Shown one piece after another: positions 1 to 8,399 of a stretch of 8,399 nucleotides of DNA (position 1 is the stretch's first letter; the number at the start of each line of letters is the position of its first letter). Under the pieces are notes generated by a model that was not told the origin of the DNA, searched no databases, and saw only the letters and a program-made list of their open reading frames with translations. The DNA comes from a virus (taxonomy: Duplodnaviria; Heunggongvirae; Uroviricota; Caudoviricetes). A program made the position numbers and the translations under genes. Location: positions 1 through 8,399 of the IMG/VR virus record IMGVR_UViG_2671180577_000022. One strand, given 5' to 3'.

Positions 1-27
1 CATTCCAGCAACGGATCTGGAGGTAAT

Positions 28-1077
28 GTGCGGGTATTACTTCGACCTGTTCTGGTACCGGAACTCGGTCTGGTTATCGTTAAGCCAGGCCGTGAATCAA
101 TGTCAGCATTCCATAACGGCAGAATACTGGTGGAGCCGGAACCAAAAAGCATGCGAGCTCTGCCGTCCGGGGTTGTACCTGCCGTTCACCAGCCGCTGGC
201 GGAAGATAAATCACTACTGCCATTTTTCAGCGATGAGCGGGTGATCCGTGCTGCGGGTGGCGCTGGTGCACTGTCTGACTGGTTATTACGTCACGTGAAA
301 TCCTGCCAGTGGCTACACGGTGATTATCATCACAGCGAAACCGTCATTCACCGTTACGGTACCGGCGCGATGGTGTTGTGCTGGCACTGCGACAACCAGC
401 TGCGGGAGCAGACATCTGATTCACTGGATCAACTTGCTCAACAGAATCTGGCCGCCTGGATGATTGACATCATCCGTCACGCAATGAATGGCGCACAGGA
501 GCGTGAATTATCTCTGGCTGAATTATCCTGGTGGGCGGTCCGCAATCAGGTGGCGGACGCGCTACCGGAAGCGGTATTACGTCTTTCGCTGGGGTTGCGT
601 GCGGAAAAAATCCGCTCCGTATACCGTGAAAGCGACATCATACCGGGAGAACAGACCGCCACCAGCATACTGAAGCAGCGCACAAAAAATATTGCGCTAC
701 CGTCTCACACCCACCAGCAACAGAACCCACCACAGGAAAAGACGGTGGTCAGCATTGCCGTTGATCCGGAGTCTCCGGAATCCTTCATGAAACGACCTAA
801 ACGTCGCCTCTGGGTAAATGAGAAATACACACGCTGGGTAAAGACACAGCCGTGTGCGTGTTGTGGTAAGCCAGCGGACGATCCTCATCATCTGATTGGT
901 CATGGTCAGGGCGGAATGGGAACAAAATCCCACGATATTTTCACGCTACCGCTGTGTCGGGAGCATCACAACGAGCTTCATGCGGATCCGCTGGCGTTCG
1001 AAGAAAAGCATGGTTCCCAGGTTGATTTAATTTTTCGTTTTCTTGATCACGCTTTTGCAACCGGCGTGCTCGGGTAA
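28..1077 (+). CDS. DUF968/YdfU-like prophage protein (349 aa) with Cys/His-rich C-terminus
   Basis: Long ORF starting at GTG 28 with GGAGG at 20-24; frame is open to the window start so the true start could lie upstream or at ATG 100. Length matches the 349-aa Qin prophage YdfU as I recall it. C-terminus shows PCACCGKP ... DDPHHLIGHG ... LCREHHNELH, an HNH/zinc-finger-like cluster. Stop TAA 1075-1077 lies 12 nt before rusA. Confidence 0.75.
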   Translation: MRVLLRPVLVPELGLVIVKPGRESMSAFHNGRILVEPEPKSMRALPSGVVPAVHQPLAEDKSLLPFFSDERVIRAAGGAGALSDWLLRHVKSCQWLHGDYHHSETVIHRYGTGAMVLCWHCDNQLREQTSDSLDQLAQQNLAAWMIDIIRHAMNGAQERELSLAELSWWAVRNQVADALPEAVLRLSLGLRAEKIRSVYRESDIIPGEQTATSILKQRTKNIALPSHTHQQQNPPQEKTVVSIAVDPESPESFMKRPKRRLWVNEKYTRWVKTQPCACCGKPADDPHHLIGHGQGGMGTKSHDIFTLPLCREHHNELHADPLAFEEKHGSQVDLIFRFLDHAFATGVLG

Positions 1078-1089
1078 AAGAGGTTACTG

Positions 1090-1461
1090 ATGCGTATAGA
1101 GTTTGTTTTGCCTTACCCGCCGACGGTGAACACCTACTGGCGACGTCGTGGCAGCACATATTTTGTATCAAAAGCCGGTGAGCGTTATCGCCGGGCTGTG
1201 GCGCTTATTGTTCGCCAGCAGCGGCTGAAATTAAGCCTGTCCGGACGGCTGGCAATAAAAATTATTGCAGAACCACCGGATAAGCGCCGCCGTGACCTGG
1301 ACAACATTCTGAAAGCACCGCTGGATGCGCTGACGCATGCGGAAGTGCTCATTGATGACGAGCAGTTTGATGAAATCAATATTGTGCGCGGTCAGCCTGT
1401 GCCAGGTGGACGGCTGGGCGTGAAGATTTACGAAATCAGAGGTGGTAACGATGGCGCGTGA
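1090..1461 (+). CDS. rusA: RusA-family Holliday junction resolvase
   Basis: 123-aa ORF with AAGAGG 7 nt upstream of ATG 1090. Protein carries the RusA-type acidic catalytic core ([20 protein letters not shown]) and is the size of RusA (~120 aa). It sits immediately upstream of Q as in DLP12 and phage 82. Confidence 0.9.
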
Positions 1462-1822
1462 TATCCAGATGGTTCTTGAGCGATGGGGGGCATGGGCAGC
1501 AAATAATCATGAAGATGTAACATGGCCCTCGATAGCTGCTGGTTTTAAAGGATTAATCCCGACTAAAGTGAAATCACGTCCTCAGTGTTCTGATGATGAC
1601 GCCATGATAATTTGTGGTTGTATGGCACGATTAAACAAGAATAATCAGTATTTGCACGATTTGTTGGTGGATTATTACGTAGGTGGAATGACATTTATGG
1701 CTCTTGCACGTAAGCATAGATGTTCTGATGGGCTTATTGGTAAAAGGCTTTATAAAGCGGAAGGTATTATTGAAGGAATGCTTATGGCTCTGAATGTCCG
1801 GTTAGATATGGATATGCGGTAG
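1451..1822 (+). CDS. Q: Late-gene antiterminator Q (phage 82 / QuuD type)
   Basis: ATG 1451 ([23 protein letters not shown]...) preceded by GAGGTGG and overlapping the rusA stop (ATGGCGCGTGA), consistent with translational coupling. The ORF track starts at GTG 1442 in the same frame. Protein resembles E. coli QuuD as I recall it ([21 protein letters not shown]...), ~125 aa. Confidence 0.85.
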
Positions 1823-1913
1823 GGATATATAGTGATGAGGGTTATGTTTTCCGTGTTTATAATTAACATGTTTATTTTTTGATGGTCATGTATTGTGGAA
1901 GGTAGATAAAATG

Positions 1914-1942
1914 TTGCCTGGTGAATTGAAAATATTGATAAT
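1914..1942 (+). promoter_or_regulatory. Candidate sigma70 promoter (possible pR'-like late promoter) upstream of the CPBP gene
   Basis: TTGCCT (1914-1919), 17-nt spacer, GATAAT (1937-1942), about 30 nt upstream of the CPBP start. A second candidate has a perfect -10 TATAAT at 1858-1863 with a weak -35. Position just downstream of Q matches where pR'/qut lie in lambdoid phages. Not verified. Confidence 0.35.
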
Positions 1943-1973
1943 CAATCTTCATCATTAAATAAAAGGAGTGCTT

Positions 1974-2792
1974 ATGTGGATTGTGTTAGTACTGTCACTG
2001 TCAACTCTCAGTTGGCATAAGGTAGTGGCTTTTTCATTGTTGACGGTGTCTGTTGTCCTGGCTGTGCTTAATGATATTATTGATTGGTCGGTGTTATTTT
2101 TTGTTGCTACAATCGTTTTTTTTATTATTTTGAAGTTCAACTGGAAATATAACGCCTGGGCTAAATCTATATATGAAGTTGGCATAGTTTTATCAGCCAT
2201 AGCATTATCTTTCCATCTATGGCCAGGGTTTCACAATCCTGTAGTGCTAAATTCTGTTACTGTTGGCCCTCAAAGTACTCCCTATACAATGTATTTTAAT
2301 TTTGATAAAGCGCTGGTGCCATTTTTGTTAGTCCTGTGTACATCTTCTTTGTTTAAAAAAGAAGTAAAATCAGAAGTGTCTTTGTGGAAGTGGGGGGCTC
2401 TGTCGCTCTCTGTTCCTCTTATCCTGTTTTTGGCTGTTTTTTTTGGTGGATTAAAGCCAGAGATTCATTTTCCTGAGTGGTTGCCAGAGTTTATATTGGC
2501 TAATTTGTTTTTTGTGTCTCTGGCAGAGGAATCATTATTTAGAGGGTATATTCAATCACGGCTATCAGAAGTAACGTCTCCATTGGTTGCATTAATTGTG
2601 GCGGCTTTGTTGTTTGGTTTTTATCACTATTCAGGTGGTGCTTTACTTGTATTATTTGCCACGTTATCTGGTGTTGTGTATGGATTGTCATGGATGTGGA
2701 GTGGGCGTTTGTGGGTTGCCACCCTTTTCCATTTTGGTTTGAATCTGTGTCACTTGTTATTCTTTACCTATCCATTTTTAAAACATAATTGA
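1974..2792 (+). CDS. CPBP-family (CAAX protease / Abi-type) intramembrane protease, polytopic membrane protein
   Basis: ATG 1974 with GGAG 5 nt upstream (ORF track starts at in-frame GTG 1968). Highly hydrophobic multi-TM sequence. All three CPBP/PF02517 signature motifs are present: EExxxR (AEESLFRGY), FxxxH (LFGFYHY) and HxxxN (FHFGLNLCH). Visibly AT-rich compared with flanking core genes. Confidence 0.8.
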   Translation: MWIVLVLSLSTLSWHKVVAFSLLTVSVVLAVLNDIIDWSVLFFVATIVFFIILKFNWKYNAWAKSIYEVGIVLSAIALSFHLWPGFHNPVVLNSVTVGPQSTPYTMYFNFDKALVPFLLVLCTSSLFKKEVKSEVSLWKWGALSLSVPLILFLAVFFGGLKPEIHFPEWLPEFILANLFFVSLAEESLFRGYIQSRLSEVTSPLVALIVAALLFGFYHYSGGALLVLFATLSGVVYGLSWMWSGRLWVATLFHFGLNLCHLLFFTYPFLKHN

Positions 2793-2933
2793 TTTTTTCT
2801 ATGGTTTTAAATTTATAAGACTGAAAAATAGCAGGACGTGACATTTGCATGAAAAATATGCACGGCAAAGCATTTACGTACGTAAAAAATCAGGTATGCT
2901 GTTAAGAGTGGTTATTTCGCCGCATAGCTTGAC

Positions 2934-2956
2934 CCCGCCTCTGAGCGGGTTTTTTG
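2934..2956 (+). terminator. Candidate Rho-independent terminator downstream of the CPBP gene
   Basis: Stem CCCGC (2934-2938) / GCGGG (2945-2949), 6-nt loop, followed by TTTTTT (2950-2955). Short GC stem, so moderate strength. Confidence 0.5.
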
Positions 2957-3078
2957 TGCCCGCAAAGTAGCGCAGTGCGTTAAATGTGCTGGTAGTTATT
3001 AATACAGGTCTTTCAGCTTGCTGGCTTTTTCGGCAAGAGTTATTGGTGTGTCACGTTAACCGGAAAGGGTAAAAAGAC

Positions 3079-3276
3079 ATGCTGAAACAGCAGGATATGA
3101 CAGAAACCGCCAGAGTTGTGTTTGATGAATTAAGCGTCACCGAACCGGCGACAGTCGGGGAGATTGCGCAGAATACTTACCTTTCACGCGAACGCTGCCA
3201 GTTAATACTGACCCAGCTTGTTATGGCGGGTCTGGCAGACTATCAGTGCGGTTGTTACAGACGCCTTCAGTCCTGA
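3079..3276 (+). CDS. Small winged-helix DNA-binding protein, PapI/FaeA-like (65 aa)
   Basis: ATG 3079 with GGAAAGGG upstream. Central segment TVGEIAQNTYLSRERCQLILTQLVMAGLA follows the PapI/FaeA-type pattern (T-x-EIA ... S ... L-x-x-L-x-x-AG). Stop overlaps an intrinsic terminator. Confidence 0.6.
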   Translation: MLKQQDMTETARVVFDELSVTEPATVGEIAQNTYLSRERCQLILTQLVMAGLADYQCGCYRRLQS

Positions 3277-3288
3277 AGGCTTTTTTAT
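3263..3288 (+). terminator. Candidate Rho-independent terminator after the small wHTH gene
   Basis: Stem GCCTTCA (3263-3269) / TGAAGGC (3274-3280), loop GTCC, followed by TTTTTTATTT. Confidence 0.55.
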
Positions 3289-3413
3289 TTGTGGTAAATG
3301 GGCGGCTGGTGGGTGTTAGCGGCACCTGTCAGTCCTTTGCTTATGTGTTGATGATAATTTACCTTTTGGGGCTATAATTGAACTAACCAATTGCTAATGA
3401 AAGTAAAATTATA

Positions 3414-4127
3414 ATGGTTGTTGTCTGTTCAGTTATCATGGTTTGCTCCCCAATTAATATTTTTCTTGAAAAGGATACGTTGTCACTTAAGCCCGGCTCA
3501 GTCGTTCTGGCCACCAAATGCATCAGGGCGCTTTTCCTTATGCATTATGGCAAAGTTAAAATTTTCGATATAAACCATTCCATAGTAAGTCAATATCTGG
3601 AAATTCAGCATAAGCTGACAAGAACTCATCTGACTGACGTTCCGCTTTATCTGTCACTGGAACCCAACAACCCTGCGTTGGCTGAGGCTTTAATTACCAG
3701 CCAGAGATTTTCCGGAGATACCACGGATATGTTTCTTATGATGGCATGCCTGTCGCTGTTTGAATCAGATGAACGGATATTATTATTTTTAAGTGGATGT
3801 TTATCCAGTATAAGTGCCAAAGTCAGGGCGATAATTCAGACAGATATATCAGCAAGCTGGACGCTTGGTGCGATTGCGTTACGCCTGCATATGAGTGAGA
3901 GTTTGTTAAAGATAAAACTGAAAAATGAAGGGCACATGTTCAGTCGCTTGTTGCTGGAAGAGCGGATGCGTGTTGCTGTGAATATGTTATGTTCCCGGCA
4001 TGGATATGGACAGGCTGTAGCAGAAAAATGCGGTTATTCAAGCTGGTCCTACTTTATTTCTGTATTTCACCGCTATTATGGCTTCCCGCCAGACAGATAT
4101 GTATCCAGGCAAGGGCTTGATTATTGA
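3414..4127 (+). CDS. AraC/XylS-family transcriptional regulator (prophage-encoded; start uncertain)
   Basis: C-terminal ~100 aa form a typical AraC-type double HTH (WTLGAIALRLHMSESLLKIKLKNEGHMFSRLLLEERMRVAVNMLCS ... CGYSSWSYFISVFHRYYGFPPDRY). No good SD precedes any candidate start (3414, 3438, 3540), so the N-terminus is uncertain. AT-rich, as is usual for H-NS-silenced AppY/YdeO/GadX-like regulators. Confidence 0.75.
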   Translation: MVVVCSVIMVCSPINIFLEKDTLSLKPGSVVLATKCIRALFLMHYGKVKIFDINHSIVSQYLEIQHKLTRTHLTDVPLYLSLEPNNPALAEALITSQRFSGDTTDMFLMMACLSLFESDERILLFLSGCLSSISAKVRAIIQTDISASWTLGAIALRLHMSESLLKIKLKNEGHMFSRLLLEERMRVAVNMLCSRHGYGQAVAEKCGYSSWSYFISVFHRYYGFPPDRYVSRQGLDY

Positions 4128-4155
4128 TTTTCATCTGATTATTATTTTTTGACCC

Positions 4156-4231
4156 GGCCCTTTAGCTCAGTGGTGAGAGCGAGCGACTCATAATCGCCAG
4201 GTCGCTGGTTCAAATCCAGCAAGGGCCACCA
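4156..4231 (+). tRNA. ileZ: tRNA-Ile2 (anticodon CAU, lysidine-type; formally also Met-like)
   Basis: Manual cloverleaf: acceptor GGCCCTT/AAGGGCC, D-stem GCTC/GAGC, anticodon loop CTCATAA, T-loop TTCAAAT, encoded CCA. Close to E. coli ileX as I recall it. One A-C mispair at 27-43. Confidence 0.85.
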
Positions 4232-4238
4232 TCACATA

Positions 4239-4315
4239 CCGCCATTAGCTCATCAGGAAAGAGCGCCAGCTTTCGAAGCTGGTTGCGCGGAGTTCGGGTC
4301 CCCGAAGGCGGTCCA
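4239..4315 (+). tRNA. argN: tRNA-Arg (anticodon UCG), non-canonical; possibly degenerate
   Basis: Manual fold: D-stem GCTC/GAGC, anticodon stem CCAGC/GCTGG with loop TTTCGAA (anticodon TCG), encoded CCA. Has an A-A mismatch at acceptor 6-67, an A-C mismatch in the T-stem, and T-loop TTCGGGT (G at the normally A58 position). Position between ileZ and argO matches the Stx-phage tRNA cluster. Confidence 0.5.
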
Positions 4316-4328
4316 TTATCTGTATCCT

Positions 4329-4405
4329 GCGTTGTTAGCTCAGCCGGACAGAGCAATTGCCTTCTAAGCAATCGGTCACTGGTTCGAATCCAGTACAACG
4401 CGCCA
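4329..4405 (+). tRNA. argO: tRNA-Arg (anticodon UCU), reads AGA/AGG rare codons
   Basis: Perfect cloverleaf: acceptor GCGTTGT/ACAACGC, D-stem GCTC/GAGC, anticodon stem ATTGC/GCAAT with loop CTTCTAA, T-arm ACTGG-TTCGAAT-CCAGT, encoded CCA. Confidence 0.85.
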
Positions 4406-4419
4406 CACTTATTTTCCCT

Positions 4420-4445
4420 GGCTCGCTTTTGTGGGCCTTTTTTTT
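4420..4445 (+). terminator. Candidate Rho-independent terminator following the tRNA cluster
   Basis: Stem GGCUCGC / GUGGGCC (7 bp including two G-U wobbles), loop TTTT, followed by a run of 8 T (4438-4445). Confidence 0.5.
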
Positions 4446-4499
4446 AAATGTCTCACAATTCAGGCGGTTGACTGTTGTCTGGTTTGCGGGGAGTTTGTT

Positions 4500-4676
4500 A
4501 AAAGAAACTGGCATGGTGAATCCCCCTGTGCGGAGGGGCAATCAGCGAGTAGGTATATGGGATAATCGCGGATTCAGGTGCTGGTACTGAATTCACCGGG
4601 AGGCACCCGGCACCATGCAATGGCACATAGCGCCACTCTCCAGCCCCTCTCCGGAGGGGCTGTTTATATTGATTTT
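4500..4676 (+). ncRNA. Candidate structured small RNA or multi-hairpin regulatory element ending in an intrinsic terminator
   Basis: Four consecutive stem-loops with no ORF: CCCCT/AGGGG (4522-4537); GGATTCAG/CTGAATTC (4570-4594); CCGGG/CCCGG (4596-4610); AGCCCCTC/GAGGGGCT (4642-4661) followed by a T-rich tail GTTTATATTGATTTT. The first and last hairpins share a CGGAGGGGC core. Confidence 0.3.
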
Positions 4677-4696
4677 GTCAGATGTGAGTAAACTCC

Positions 4697-5032
4697 TTAT
4701 GGACTTTGTTGTTTTAGCCCATAAGGACATATTTGCAGAGTGCAACGGTTATTAAAGCATTCATTCAATACGTTATCTGTATTTGTAGGGCATTCCTGGC
4801 TGTTTTTGATTAAATTCCAGAATGTTTTATTGAATGGTACTACGTTGTAAATGGTTACAGGTAGCACTTTGTTATTGAGCATGATGCCTGTGTGAGTCAG
4901 TGTAAATATACTTTCAGGAGGTAAGAAAGCATCCGATTGATACCAGATTATTAATTTTATTTTACTCCATATGACTGAAAAAGATATTCCGCATGATGGC
5001 TGGATAACTGTATCAATCACAATCCACTTCAT
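4697..5032 (-). CDS. Hypothetical orphan protein (111 aa), only minus-strand gene candidate in the window
   Basis: 111-codon ORF in very AT-rich DNA, where stop codons are frequent by chance. Minus-strand start context AAGGAAACTAAATG gives a plausible SD with ~5-nt spacing. No recognisable motif, signal peptide or lipobox. Confidence 0.4.
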
Positions 5033-5052
5033 TTAGTTTCCTTGTTTATGCC

Positions 5053-5080
5053 TTGCTGGTGATGTTCTGAAAAGTATAAA
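5053..5080 (+). promoter_or_regulatory. Candidate sigma70 promoter upstream of nanS-p
   Basis: TTGCTG (5053-5058), 16-nt spacer, TATAAA (5075-5080) in the AT-rich intergenic region; a divergent promoter for the minus-strand ORF may share this region. Unverified. Confidence 0.3.
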
Positions 5081-5277
5081 TGATATTTTTGATTGTAAAC
5101 CATAGAGCAGAATTATTTTTCTGATGTTGTTTATTGTTTATTTAAATGCAGGGTGGTTTATATCTCGTCTTGTAGTTTATCCATGCATATCTGCTTGATG
5201 ATGAGGTTTTTATTTAAGGTATGGTTTTGTGTTTTTTCTGTATTACATGTCAGGTATTTTAAAGAATCATTTTTCAG

Positions 5278-7146
5278 ATGGTGGAAAGAACCATGGCATT
5301 TAAACACTATGATGTTGTCAGGGCGGCGTCGCCGTCAGATCTTGCGGAAAAGCTGACACATAAACTGAAAGAGGGCTGGCAGCCGTTTGGTAGTCCGGTG
5401 GCCATAACCCCTTATACCCTGATGCAGGCGATTGCAGCAGAAGGTGATGTGGTGGTCAGTGGTGCAACTGAGCCGGATTGGTACTACGTCATCGTACTGG
5501 CCGGGCAGTCCAATGCCATGGCTTACGGTGAAGGGCTTCCGCTGCCGGATTCATACGATGCGCCCCATCCGCGCATTAAGCAACTGGCCCGTCGTAACAC
5601 AGTGACTCCCGGTGGTGAAGTATGCGTATTTAACGACATCATTCCTGCTGACCATTGTCTGCATGATGTTCAGGATATGAGTACGATTAACCATCCCCGG
5701 GCTGACCTGAGCAAAGGGCAGTACGGCTGTGTCGGACAGGGCTTACATATTGCCAAAAAACTGCTTCCGTATATCCCTAATAACGCGGGGATCCTGCTGG
5801 TACCATGCTGTCGTGGTGGTTCGGCATTCACCCAGGGCACGGAGGGGACATTCAGCGAGTCCACGGGGGCCAGTCAGGATTCGGCTCGCTGGGGAGTGGG
5901 TAAGCCGTTATATCAGGATCTGCTTTTCCGCACGAAGGCAGCATTGCAGAAAAACCCGAAAAACGTTTTGCTGGCGATATGCTGGATGCAGGGGGAATTC
6001 GATATGACGAATGCCAGTTACGCCCAGCAGCCAGCAGCATTTCTTGCAATGGTACAGCAGTTCCGTGCTGACCTTGCCGGGCTGGCGGCGCAGTGTCACG
6101 GTGGAAGTCCGGCATCAGTCCCCTGGATTTGTGGCGACACGACATACGCGTGGAAACAAGAACACGGTACGCAATATGAAGTGGTATATGGTGCATATAA
6201 AGGTAAAGAATCCCAGCAGATTTATTTTGTTCCCTTTATGACCGATGGTAGCGGAGTTAATACACCGACAAACAACCCGTCAGAAGATCCTGATATTGTC
6301 GGGTCTGGTTATTACGGTTCGGCATCCCGAACGAACAAAAACTGGGTATCATCAAATCGCCCGACGCATTTCAGCTCATGGGCGCGTCGTGGCATTATTC
6401 CCGATCGTATGGCAACTGCTATTCTGAACGTAGCCGGTCGCACCTTAGCCTTCATTAGTGGTAAGGCACCGGAAATCAAACCCTCGCCCGGCGGCGACAC
6501 GCCATCGGGGCCGTCTGAAGATGCATCCATACGCACAATCTCCCTGTTGCCGACAGCCGGAGACGCTGCTGCGCAGGGCTGGAGCATTAAGAATGGCGGA
6601 ATTCAGTTGTCGGGTGGTGTATTTAAGATCGCCAAGCAGAGCAATAAAACCTGGTCCCTGACGCGCCCGGTGGATGACGCAGTCTCCCTGCTGACACGGG
6701 GTGGCAGACTGAGCTGTAAGTTTCGACTGTCAGGCGCACTGACCAACAACCAGTTCGGTCTGGGAATTTATCTGTATACCGATGTAGCGTTACCTGACGT
6801 CGTGGCGATGACCGGGACTGGTAACCCGTTCCTGATGTCGTTCTTCACCCAGACCACAGACGGCAAACTGAATCTGATGCATCACAAGAAAGCCGGAAAC
6901 ACAAAGTTGGGCGAGTTCGGGAATTACAGTAACGACTGGCAGACGCTGGAGCTGGTGTTCACCGCCGGCAGTGCCACGGTTACTCCGAAACTGAATGGAG
7001 TGGCTGGCCCGGCATTCCAGGTCATAAAAGACAGTCTGACAGTGGGACTAAATGCACTGACGCTGACGGATATTACCAAAAATGCAACGTATGGCGTTGA
7101 GATAGAAAGTCTGGTGCTGGAGATAAATGCACCGGCATCATCATAA
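5278..7146 (+). CDS. nanS-p: Prophage sialate O-acetylesterase NanS-p (N-terminal DUF1737, SGNH/SASA esterase domain, C-terminal extension)
   Basis: 622-aa ORF; alternative start ATG 5293 (MAFKHYDVV...) has the better SD (GGAAAG). SGNH/SASA active-site block [16 protein letters not shown] is present. Location just upstream of the holin matches NanS-p genes of Stx and non-Stx lambdoid prophages. Confidence 0.9.
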
Positions 7147-7231
7147 AAAGTGAGCCAGCCAAATGGAAGGTATCGTTAAACTCACCGGTAGTGTCAGTGG
7201 GTCGTCTGAGACGCCTGCATGAGTTATCAGA

Positions 7232-7262
7232 GCCATCAGTACTTAACTGGTGGCTTTTTTAT
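7232..7262 (+). terminator. Candidate Rho-independent terminator between nanS-p and the holin gene
   Basis: Stem GCCAUCAG (7232-7239) / CUGGUGGC (7247-7254) with one G-U pair, loop TACTTAA, followed by TTTTTTATTG. Confidence 0.5.
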
Positions 7263-7295
7263 TGTTGTCAGCTTCCGGATAACGGGAGACGGGGT

Positions 7296-7511
7296 ATGTA
7301 CCAGATGGAAAAAATCACAACAGGTGTGTCATACACCACGTCAGCGGTGGGAACGGGCTACTGGTTCCTGCAGTTGCTGGACAGGGTTTCCCCGTCTCAG
7401 TGGGCGGCAATAGGCGTGCTGGGGAGTCTGCTGTTTGGGCTGCTGACATATCTGACTAACCTGTATTTCAAAATCAGAGAGGACCGTCGTAAGGCGGCAC
7501 GGGGAGAGTAA
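7296..7511 (+). CDS. S: Class II holin, S21/EssQ-like pinholin (71 aa) with dual-start motif
   Basis: ATG 7296 with GGGAG 7 nt upstream. Protein [71 protein letters not shown] is near-identical to phage 21 / Qin / 933W S as I recall them. Met1 and Met4 form the classic antiholin/holin dual start. The ORF-track start at 7191 is an upstream in-frame extension. Confidence 0.9.
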
Positions 7512-7515
7512 TTCA

Positions 7516-7866
7516 ATGACTCAAAACTATGAACTGATTGTGAAAGGGATCCGCAATTTTGAGAATAAAGTTACGGTAACTTTAGCGTTACGGGACAAAA
7601 AACGCTTTGACGGTGAAATTTTTGACCTGGACATCTCGCTGGACCGTGTTGAAGGTGCCGCGCTGGAGTTTTATGAGGCAGCAGCCAGAAGGAGCATCAG
7701 ACAGGTCTTCCTGGATGTTGCTGCCGGGTTATGTGAAGGGGATGAGCAGTCGCCGGAAAAGCGCCCCGTAATTTTAGAGGCGCAGAATGTGTGGATAACC
7801 TACAAAGGAAAGCTACCAGGAAGAATTACTGGTTCTCTGAAGACTCCTCCGGAATCACAACCTTAA
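7516..7866 (+). CDS. Hypothetical phage protein (116 aa) between holin and endolysin (YdfR-like position)
   Basis: ATG 7516 lies 4 nt after the holin stop with GGGGAGAG upstream; same strand and tightly packed within the lysis cassette. Qin-type cassettes carry a small gene (ydfR) in this slot; similarity not verified. Confidence 0.6.
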   Translation: MTQNYELIVKGIRNFENKVTVTLALRDKKRFDGEIFDLDISLDRVEGAALEFYEAAARRSIRQVFLDVAAGLCEGDEQSPEKRPVILEAQNVWITYKGKLPGRITGSLKTPPESQP

Positions 7867-7929
7867 GTCACTGACCAGAACAGATAAACCTGTCCGTGGG
7901 CAGAAACCGATAAATCCTGATAAATATCC

Positions 7930-8399
7930 ATGAACGCAAAAATCAGATACGGCCTGTCGGCTGCCGTTCTGGCACTGATTGCCGTCGGTGCGCCCGCGCC
8001 TGATATTCTCGACCAGTTTCTGGATGAAAAAGAGGGTAACCACACTACGGCATACCGCGATGGTTCCGGCATCTGGACCATCTGTCGGGGGGCCACGATG
8101 GTGGATGGAAAACCCGTTTTTCCCGGTATGAAACTGTCGAAGGAAAAATGCGACCAGGTCAACGCCATTGAGCGTGATAAGGCGCTGGCATGGGTGGAGA
8201 AAAACATCAAAGTGCCATTGAGCGAACCCCAGAAAGCGGGGATCGCGTCATTCTGTCCGTACAACATTGGTCCCGGTAAGTGTTTCCCGTCGACGTTTTA
8301 TAAACGAATTAATGCAGGTGATCGCAGGGGAGCGTGTGAGGCGATTCGCTGGTGGATTAAGGACGGTGGCAGAGACTGCCGTATTCGTTCAAACAACTG
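7930..8399 (+). CDS. R: SAR endolysin (phage lysozyme R, GH24 family), 3' end truncated by window
   Basis: ATG 7930; the ORF track omits it because no stop is reached. Translation MNAKIRYGLSAAVLALIAVGAPAPDILDQFLDEKEGNHTTAYRDGSGIWTICRGAT... has a Gly/Ala-rich N-terminal SAR segment followed by a T4-lysozyme-like catalytic region. Near-identical to 933W/Qin-type R as I recall it; the SAR type pairs with the pinholin. Confidence 0.9.
   Translation, partial: MNAKIRYGLSAAVLALIAVGAPAPDILDQFLDEKEGNHTTAYRDGSGIWTICRGATMVDGKPVFPGMKLSKEKCDQVNAIERDKALAWVEKNIKVPLSEPQKAGIASFCPYNIGPGKCFPSTFYKRINAGDRRGACEAIRWWIKDGGRDCRIRSNN

Follow-up and report, generated by a model that had tools for sequence, protein, structure and literature searches.

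Two described systems frame the locus reported here. Within the phage 21 family of antiterminators, the solved member Q21 has its Q-binding element between the -35 and -10 hexamers (PMC6606751). In Sp5, a Shiga toxin (Stx) 2a phage of Escherichia coli Sakai, the Q protein belongs to the QuuD/Q933 group, the late promoter pR' is active in lysogens and transcribes stx2, and a 258-nt precursor of the leader RNA StxS reads through a first hairpin, the published terminator tR' being the second one at +258 (Sy, Lan and Tree 2020; PMC7547250). We compared with these an 8,399-nt stretch of caudoviricete DNA (IMG/VR record IMGVR_UViG_2671180577_000022, positions 1 to 8,399; hereafter the window, to which all coordinates refer unless another locus is named), in which the gene after Q encodes a CPBP (Rce1-like/Abi) intramembrane glutamic endopeptidase. 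A first-pass annotation had rightly noted that this gene is the first open reading frame (ORF) past Q, but took the promoter candidate in front of it, P1, for pR' with its qut site, and the gene for the first Q-antiterminated late gene. By homology, pR' is instead P2, a promoter past the CPBP stop codon at 2792, and not P1. Because the gene stands upstream of pR', it would escape Q antitermination, and on these comparisons the regulatory reading of the first-pass annotation is refuted for this window. Feature coordinates are collected in Table 1.

The window covers the late-regulatory part of a lambdoid prophage, the counterpart of Sp4 in E. coli O157:H7 Sakai. Between 1400 and 3100 it shares 99.9% identity with E. 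coli chromosomes of O111, O145 and other types, and of 5,426 complete E. coli genomes, 572 carry this region at nearly its full length. Many of these carriers are Shiga-toxin-producing O157, O145, O111 and O103 strains, and the CPBP gene is thereby found in about a tenth of the complete genomes. In Sakai, Q is ECs1084, the CPBP gene ECs1085 ('CAAX amino terminal protease family protein') and ECs1087 is psrA (psrA and the Sp4 locus: PMC13502914). The CPBP gene is thus already annotated in E. coli genomes, elsewhere as 'CPBP family intramembrane glutamic endopeptidase', and the slot that it occupies is of a known kind.

The first clue to the position of pR' was that Stx2 phages match the window at 2900-3100 only, and that in Stx2_EH2201 this sequence stands directly after Q. 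Phage 4A7, whose Q is 87% identical to that of the window, has Q, then a porin gene in reverse orientation, and then, about 190 nt before the holin gene, a P2-like element that reads TTTACGTACGTAAAAAAT..TATGCTGTTAAGAGTGGTTAC..hairpin-T run (TTTACGTACGTAAAAAATTGGTTATGCTGTTAAGAGTGGTTAC...CCCGCCGTCGAGCGGGTTTTT) and is homologous to window 2873-2955. The same element lies just upstream of the holin gene in phage 434, again after a reverse porin gene, and the PA-2 record of the porin gene lc, J02580, contains it as well. Altogether, P2 and its leader are matched by 295 phage records, many of them Stx1a- and Stx2a-converting phages.

In Sp5 the homologous promoter, TTTACG-16-TATCAT, overlaps the end of Q933. 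Its pR' start was mapped by differential RNA sequencing to 1,266,203, and the StxS 3' end to 1,266,460, on NC_002695.1 (PMC7547250). With an offset of +140 to NC_002695.2, which we take as valid because the published tR' 3' end then falls inside the terminator T-run, this start lies 5 nt past TATCAT (position 743 of L014, the Sp5 locus), and the homologous base of the window is A2905. Around it, T2903, A2904, A2905, A2907 and T2909 do not vary across the nine aligned cassettes, some of which are paired with a different Q. In lambda the pause element AACGAT occupies about +1 to +6, and on that basis the -10-like hexamer AAGAGT at the predicted start is a candidate sigma-dependent pause element.

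Gene order in one relative agrees with this placement: the C311 Stx1d prophage (L005) runs Q, CPBP, P2, StxS-like leader, tR', stx1d and holin. Within this C311 segment (L005 3137-6495), the leader after the Q-CPBP module and pR' retains a terminator before stx1dAB, and the first hairpin is degenerate. A search of E. coli genomes with the Q-CPBP intergenic sequence recovered 572 genomes, with the query between Q and CPBP in all matches listed; since this number equals the count for the full Q-CPBP-pR' segment, the search could not locate pR'. Just upstream of pR', a small inverted repeat, TGCAT-gaaaaat-ATGCA, occupies 2846-2862; between alleles, conservation of the segment that holds it is 89-95%.

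The promoter was also examined for co-variation with its antiterminator by aligning nine cassettes and their Q proteins. The window Q is 79% identical to Sakai Sp5 Q933 and distantly matches the solved Q21 structure 6P18. Where the DNA-recognition helix of Q reads CSDG(L/Y)IGK(R/K)L(Y/Q)KAEG, as in the window, L005, L006, L012 and 4A7, the -35 sequence is TTACGTACGTAA; the Q933 helix of Sp5 (CSDTCIGKRLHKAEG) is paired with TTACGATCGTAA, the Q of PhiR40 (PhiR40_1) with TTACAATCGTAA, and the 47%-identical Q of Stx2_EH2201 with TGCGGTCCGCA. From the -10 hexamer onward, the leader (TAAGAGTGGTTA...hairpin) is conserved under every Q type. A conserved leader behind a -35 region that varies with Q is the pattern expected with a Q-binding element between -35 and -10, for which the palindrome over the -35 hexamer is our candidate. 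The window has a single copy of the motif TTACRNNYGTAAA, at 2874-2886, and most of the fetched loci with a QuuD/Q933-type Q have a single copy downstream of Q; in the CPBP-bearing loci it is always past the CPBP gene.

With phage 21 Q (PDB 6P18, 6JNX; PMC6606751), the window Q shares the family PF06530 and a binding element that would lie between -35 and -10. It differs in length (123-126 aa for the Q proteins of the window group, 162 aa for Q21) and in its site, which is a direct repeat of TGAGCA for Q21, whereas the co-varying element here is a 12-bp palindrome overlapping the -35 hexamer. Because of this palindrome in place of the Q21 direct repeat, the short Q proteins of the QuuD/Q933 group may bind DNA differently from Q21. 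A pR' position and a candidate Q-binding palindrome for this antiterminator group are thus a by-product of the analysis. The co-varying palindromes lie at 2874-2885 in the window, 712-723 in L014, about 1502-1513 in L015 and about 3975-3985 in L002. In L012, a prophage with a 62%-identical CPBP allele, a perfect 24-bp palindrome, CTAGATATTGCATGCAATATCTAG, spans the Q stop codon (5862-5885), with no T-run after it.

The hairpin that we designate tR' would span nucleotides +30 to +51 or so of a transcript from pR'. It lies 142 nt past the CPBP stop codon, and is conserved together with pR' in 4A7, 434, PhiR40, Sp5 and EH2201. Because pR' is P2, we read it as the first pR'-proximal terminator and not as a private terminator of the CPBP gene; the intrinsic terminator that had been reported after the gene accordingly exists, as a hairpin followed by six T residues, but belongs to the conserved pR' element. 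The fold of the pR' leader is no more stable than that of shuffled sequences (z = -1.1), so the terminator call rests on form and conservation, and Rfam holds no family matching 1823-3078. In 4A7, no further terminator-like hairpin was apparent between pR' and the holin gene on inspection by eye, without a scan of that locus. The promoter, start region and first hairpin of the Sp5 leader correspond to window 2873-2955. The window differs in lacking the StxS core of about 200 nt and the +258 terminator, both of which are present in C311 and L012, and in two central bases of the -35 palindrome, a difference that matches its different Q allele. The first hairpin of Sp5 (L014 758-787) is canonical, is followed by seven T residues, and spans about +20 to +45, within the 258-nt StxS precursor.

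The sequence between Q and pR' is mosaic. The 3' ends of Q cease to be homologous at about 1815, and homology to other phages resumes at TTTACG near 2873; the GC content in between is 0.35-0.39, against 0.50-0.56 in the upstream early genes. Q and pR' overlap in Sp5 and are 1.05 kb apart here, which gives the insertion and the deviant composition expected of a moron. As for the promoter and terminator that a moron would bring with it, P1 is conserved but not above chance, and the first terminator downstream is tR'. Judged from these boundaries and from composition, the CPBP gene is cargo inserted between Q and pR'.

Other phages fill the same gap differently: it holds the reverse porin gene in 4A7 and 434, a reverse ORF of 148 aa in PhiR40 and a forward ORF of 197 aa in POCJ13, and it is empty in Sp5. 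By these contents, the gap between Q and pR' has received insertions repeatedly. A close counterpart of the CPBP cassette is the porin cargo of 4A7 and 434, which occupies the same gap next to a QuuD-type Q and the same pR'-tR' cassette, and likewise consists of foreign AT-rich DNA with a promoter-like sequence of its own. The porin gene is transcribed in the opposite direction, whereas the CPBP gene points the same way as Q, lacks a private terminator and leads into pR'-tR'. We take the porin gene to be the one known as lc in PA-2 and nmpC in DLP12.

Pairing of the CPBP gene with Q persists in alleles down to 59% protein identity (L012, L017). A different arrangement is found in L018 (4741-6268) and L019, where Q is of the lambda type (PF03589) and a 55%-identical CPBP gene follows a putative pR'-tR' and precedes the holin gene; in prophages of this type the CPBP gene may be truly late-expressed. 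In L018 the order is Q, TTGATT-18-TATGCT, a strong terminator at 4831-4856, the CPBP gene and holin. In Enterobacter, Dickeya, Salmonella and others, homologues of about 50% identity are encoded singly on the chromosome among unrelated neighbors, and because they stand alone, the CPBP protein would need no phage partner. In a neighbor-joining tree calculated without support values, the prophage copies form one group that also takes in a single chromosomal sequence, and a tblastn search of 50,697 isolated-phage records with the CPBP protein returned no homologue.

The CPBP reading frame begins with the ATG at 1974, a start identical to that in RefSeq, and the N-terminal MW of its product is conserved among homologues, with W2 invariant. 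The protein matches the Rce1-like family PF02517 of Pfam over residues 169-258 with 70.6 bits (cut-off 22.4; E 1.4e-19), and all three motifs claimed for it in the first-pass annotation are present: EExxxR as EESLFR (E185, E186, R190), FxxxH as FGFYH (F214, H218) and HxxxN/D as HFGLN (H253, N257). Non-conservation of these motifs among homologues had been named as a reason to abandon the assignment; in an alignment of 37 homologues of 48-84% identity, E185, E186, R190, F214, H218 and H253 are invariant, and N257 is retained in at least 90%, with D in one. Between alleles of the gene, 53 of 96 substitutions fall at third codon positions. The AlphaFold model is confident (predicted local distance difference test, pLDDT, 94.9; predicted template modeling score, pTM, 0.91) and mostly helical, apart from a short stretch of strand (residues 90-107).

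Because of the Pfam match, the conserved motifs, the third-position bias and the confident model, the gene product is probably an intact and active glutamic intramembrane protease, in keeping with the earlier opinion that it is no relic. Structural comparison with Rce1/CPBP folds, which had also been proposed, gave Rce1 (4CAD) and SpdC (6U0O) as the top Foldseek matches in the PDB; these matches are weak (E about 0.04-0.05, TM 0.37-0.45). A sequence search of the PDB with the CPBP protein gave no match, NCBIfam matches were to myxosortase-type CPBP models below threshold only, and in PHROGs the protein corresponds over its full length to phrog_13291 (E 1e-182), a family listed there as unknown.

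Set against described members of PF02517, formerly 'Abi' (Rce1, Staphylococcus aureus SpdC/LyrA and MroQ, and bacteriocin-immunity proteins, among them PlnI and SkkI), the window protein is alike in its Pfam match, its three motifs, its predicted multi-helix membrane architecture and its best, if weak, structural matches. It is unlike them in being encoded on a lambdoid prophage without an adjacent bacteriocin gene, a prenylated substrate or a two-component partner, and in belonging to an Enterobacterales subfamily of about 272 aa with a strongly conserved segment of its own. This segment, PGFHN...S..Y.MYxNFDKAxxPF (residues 84-117, nt about 2223-2324), lies outside the Pfam domain, between the N-terminal helices and the catalytic core, and forms short strands in the model. 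Literature searches on the protein accession, on ECs1085, and on CAAX/CPBP with prophage and antiterminator returned nothing on this gene. By analogy with other cargo of the slot and with CPBP immunity proteins, our best guess at the most likely role is host conversion, in which the protease would shield the lysogen envelope from a peptide that acts on membranes, or from an incoming phage, by cleaving or binding a substrate embedded in the membrane.

P1, the promoter candidate before the gene, is ambiguous by itself. The sigma70 promoter described in the first-pass annotation as a good one about 30 nt upstream does exist, with 31 nt between its end and the ATG, but with nine of 12 consensus positions it is not above chance: a scan of 4 kb found 16 sites as good as P1, against 10.0 +/- 3.7 expected in shuffles of this AT-rich DNA. 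Comparison of alleles is more favorable to it. The P1 segment is 84% and 98% identical in two diverged alleles, versus 76% and 78% for the intergenic DNA upstream, and TTGCC and GATAAT are invariant across three alleles. A 62%-identical CPBP allele with an unrelated upstream region also has a promoter-like sequence, TTGCAT-17/18-TATAAA, before the gene. Within P1, a tandem 9-bp repeat, ATTGAAAAT/ATTGATAAT, occupies 1925-1942, and the only -10-like hexamer after P1 is CATCAT at 1950-1955, which is AGTTGT in the C311 allele. The pR' palindrome TTACGNNCGTAA is absent from P1 and, in the window, confined to 2874-2885. A Q21-style loading site at P1, with the repeat for binding and CATCAT as pause element, was considered and rejected since CATCAT is not conserved, P1 has no sequence in common with the Q-co-varying cassette, and that cassette was located downstream.

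Taken as a whole, the locus is probably best explained by a cargo CPBP gene upstream of pR', outside Q antitermination, that is expressed from P1 or by read-through and serves in host conversion. Q acts only on RNA polymerase that has initiated at pR'. The CPBP gene would be transcribed from its own promoter P1, possibly in the lysogen, and after induction, early-right transcripts leaving Q would read into it, a read-through that we propose because the scan found no terminator-like site between Q and the CPBP gene. Transcripts of both kinds would end at tR', and the product would be an inner-membrane glutamic endopeptidase with the catalytic set E185/E186, R190, H218, H253 and N257.

The alternative that survives best drops the promoter: the CPBP gene would be the last gene of the early-right (pR) operon together with Q, silent in the lysogen and lytic in role, for example by acting on a membrane protein of host or phage with an effect on lysis or superinfection. 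Its co-directional position 151 nt downstream of Q with no terminator between, the statistically unremarkable P1 in AT-rich DNA prone to silencing, and the location of relatives' CPBP genes between Q and the lysis genes all fit such an operon. We nevertheless consider it unlikely, given the invariant P1 hexamers in diverged alleles, the promoter-like sequence before the 62%-identical allele, and other occupants of the slot, such as the porin gene, that run opposite to Q and so are not transcribable from pR. The own-promoter and read-through routes are not mutually exclusive.

A more skeptical view holds the gene to be inert cargo without a role in E. coli or the phage, a copy of some chromosomal Enterobacterales gene that is hitch-hiking, silenced or in decay. 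Prophages of the Sp4 type are often defective, no phenotype, partner gene or publication was found, and chromosomal homologues exist in other genera. A full-length frame that is identical or nearly so in 572 genomes, invariant catalytic residues, third-position bias, and a Q-CPBP pairing kept down to 59-62% protein identity make this very improbable.

Scarcely credible, finally, is P1 as pR'/qut, with the CPBP gene strongly expressed in lytic growth and 2934-2955 as its terminator: P1 does lie about 90 nt past the end of Q, a position that pR' occupies in lambda and 933W, its tandem repeat recalls the direct-repeat Q21 binding element, and the L018 and L019 genes do follow a putative pR'-tR', but the conserved pR'-tR' cassette of this Q type, with a mapped start in its Sp5 homologue, lies at 2873-2955, P1 has neither its palindrome nor a conserved pause element, and with no terminator between P1 and the gene the product would be made without Q even then. 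More generally, since pR' fires constitutively in lysogens, any gene placed between it and tR' would be independent of Q anyway, and the Q dependence that had been claimed for the CPBP gene in such a position does not follow.

Several points weigh against the account that we prefer, in which cargo CPBP is expressed from P1 or by read-through. The identification of P2 as pR' is drawn from homology and co-variation, and the strength of termination at 2934-2955 is uncertain because the Sp5 StxS precursor reads through its first hairpin. P1 is a 9/12 match in AT-rich DNA, where such matches abound, and AT-rich prophage DNA is often silenced by H-NS. Late expression of the CPBP gene is possible in some relatives because in L018 and L019 it follows the putative pR'-tR'. 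As to function, PADLOC gave no family match for the CPBP protein at E <= 0.01, and no bacteriocin gene was called beside CPBP in the window or among the called neighbors of the homologues examined.

If the CPBP gene lies outside the Q-controlled late unit, its phenotype is to be sought in the lysogen or early after induction and not late in the lytic cycle; in one relative the gene stands directly upstream of stx1d. A wider proposal, which we regard as doubtful, is that the prophage CPBP proteases are a clade of recurrent Q-to-lysis cargo, paired with two unrelated Q families and placed on either side of pR'-tR', and constitute an undescribed envelope-protecting or superinfection-excluding protease common in serotypes of Shiga-toxin-producing E. 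coli such as O157, O145, O111 and O103.

Table 1. Regulatory elements and genes of the window
Feature	Coordinates	Strand	Remarks
P1, sigma70-like promoter candidate	1914-1942	+	TTGCCT-17-GATAAT; 9/12 consensus; predicted start about 1949-1951
Shine-Dalgarno AAGGAG of the CPBP gene	1963-1968	+	5 nt before ATG; read from sequence
CPBP (Rce1-like/Abi) intramembrane glutamic endopeptidase gene	1974-2792	+	272 aa; Sakai ECs1085; RefSeq WP_000265267
CPBP cassette, ~1.05 kb of AT-rich DNA	about 1816-2870	+	lies between the point where Q homology ends and pR'
P2, late promoter pR'	2873-2900	+	-35 TTTACG 2873-2878, 16-nt spacer, -10 TATGCT 2895-2900; by homology
Palindrome TTACGTACGTAA, candidate Q-binding element over -35	2874-2885	+	
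Predicted pR' start A2905 with -10-like hexamer AAGAGT, candidate sigma-dependent pause element	2904-2909	+	homology to the mapped Sp5 start
tR', first pR'-proximal intrinsic terminator	2934-2955	+	CCCGC-CTCTGA-GCGGG + T6; 5 GC pairs, 6-nt loop (scan)
Second intrinsic terminator downstream of pR'	3263-3290	+	GCCTTCAGTCCTGAAGGC then TTTTTTATTT (scan)
DUF968/NinG-like gene	28-1077		
RusA gene	1090-1461		
Q antiterminator gene, Q21/Q933W family, QuuD-like	1451-1822	+	123 aa from annotated ATG; PF06530 E 4.9e-52; RefSeq coordinates
65-aa ORF	3079-3276	+	phrog_331 E 6e-37
AraC-type regulator gene	3414-4127	+	
Three tRNAs	4156-4405	+	annotated ileZ-argN-argO in Sakai
NanS-p-type sialate O-acetylesterase gene	5278-7146	+	622 aa (DUF1737 + SASA + DUF6645); precedes holin
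Holin gene	7296-7511		
DUF1327 gene	7516-7866	+	between holin and lysozyme
Likely lysozyme ORF, start only	from ~7931		read from sequence; counterpart annotated lysozyme in O111 strain 11128

Beyond the late promoter, the 65-aa phrog_331 ORF also follows the pR'-tR' cassette in Stx2_EH2201, L006, L012 and PhiR40. The AraC-family gene corresponds to Sakai psrA, annotated there with a shorter frame of 588 nt, and encodes a prophage-borne regulator of type 3 secretion and the GAD acid-resistance system. The first tRNA of the cluster after it is called Met (anticodon CAT) by ARAGORN and Ile in genome records. A full-length Rfam match to the small RNA STnc100 (RF02076, 132 bits) occupies 4482-4671 on the plus strand and finishes at a strong terminator, 4641-4662. 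On the minus strand, in very AT-rich DNA of 30-37% GC, an ORF of 111 aa (4697-5032) belongs to phrog_4407 and is 75% identical to a Stx2_EH2201 gene annotated as iraM, an RpoS stabilizer.

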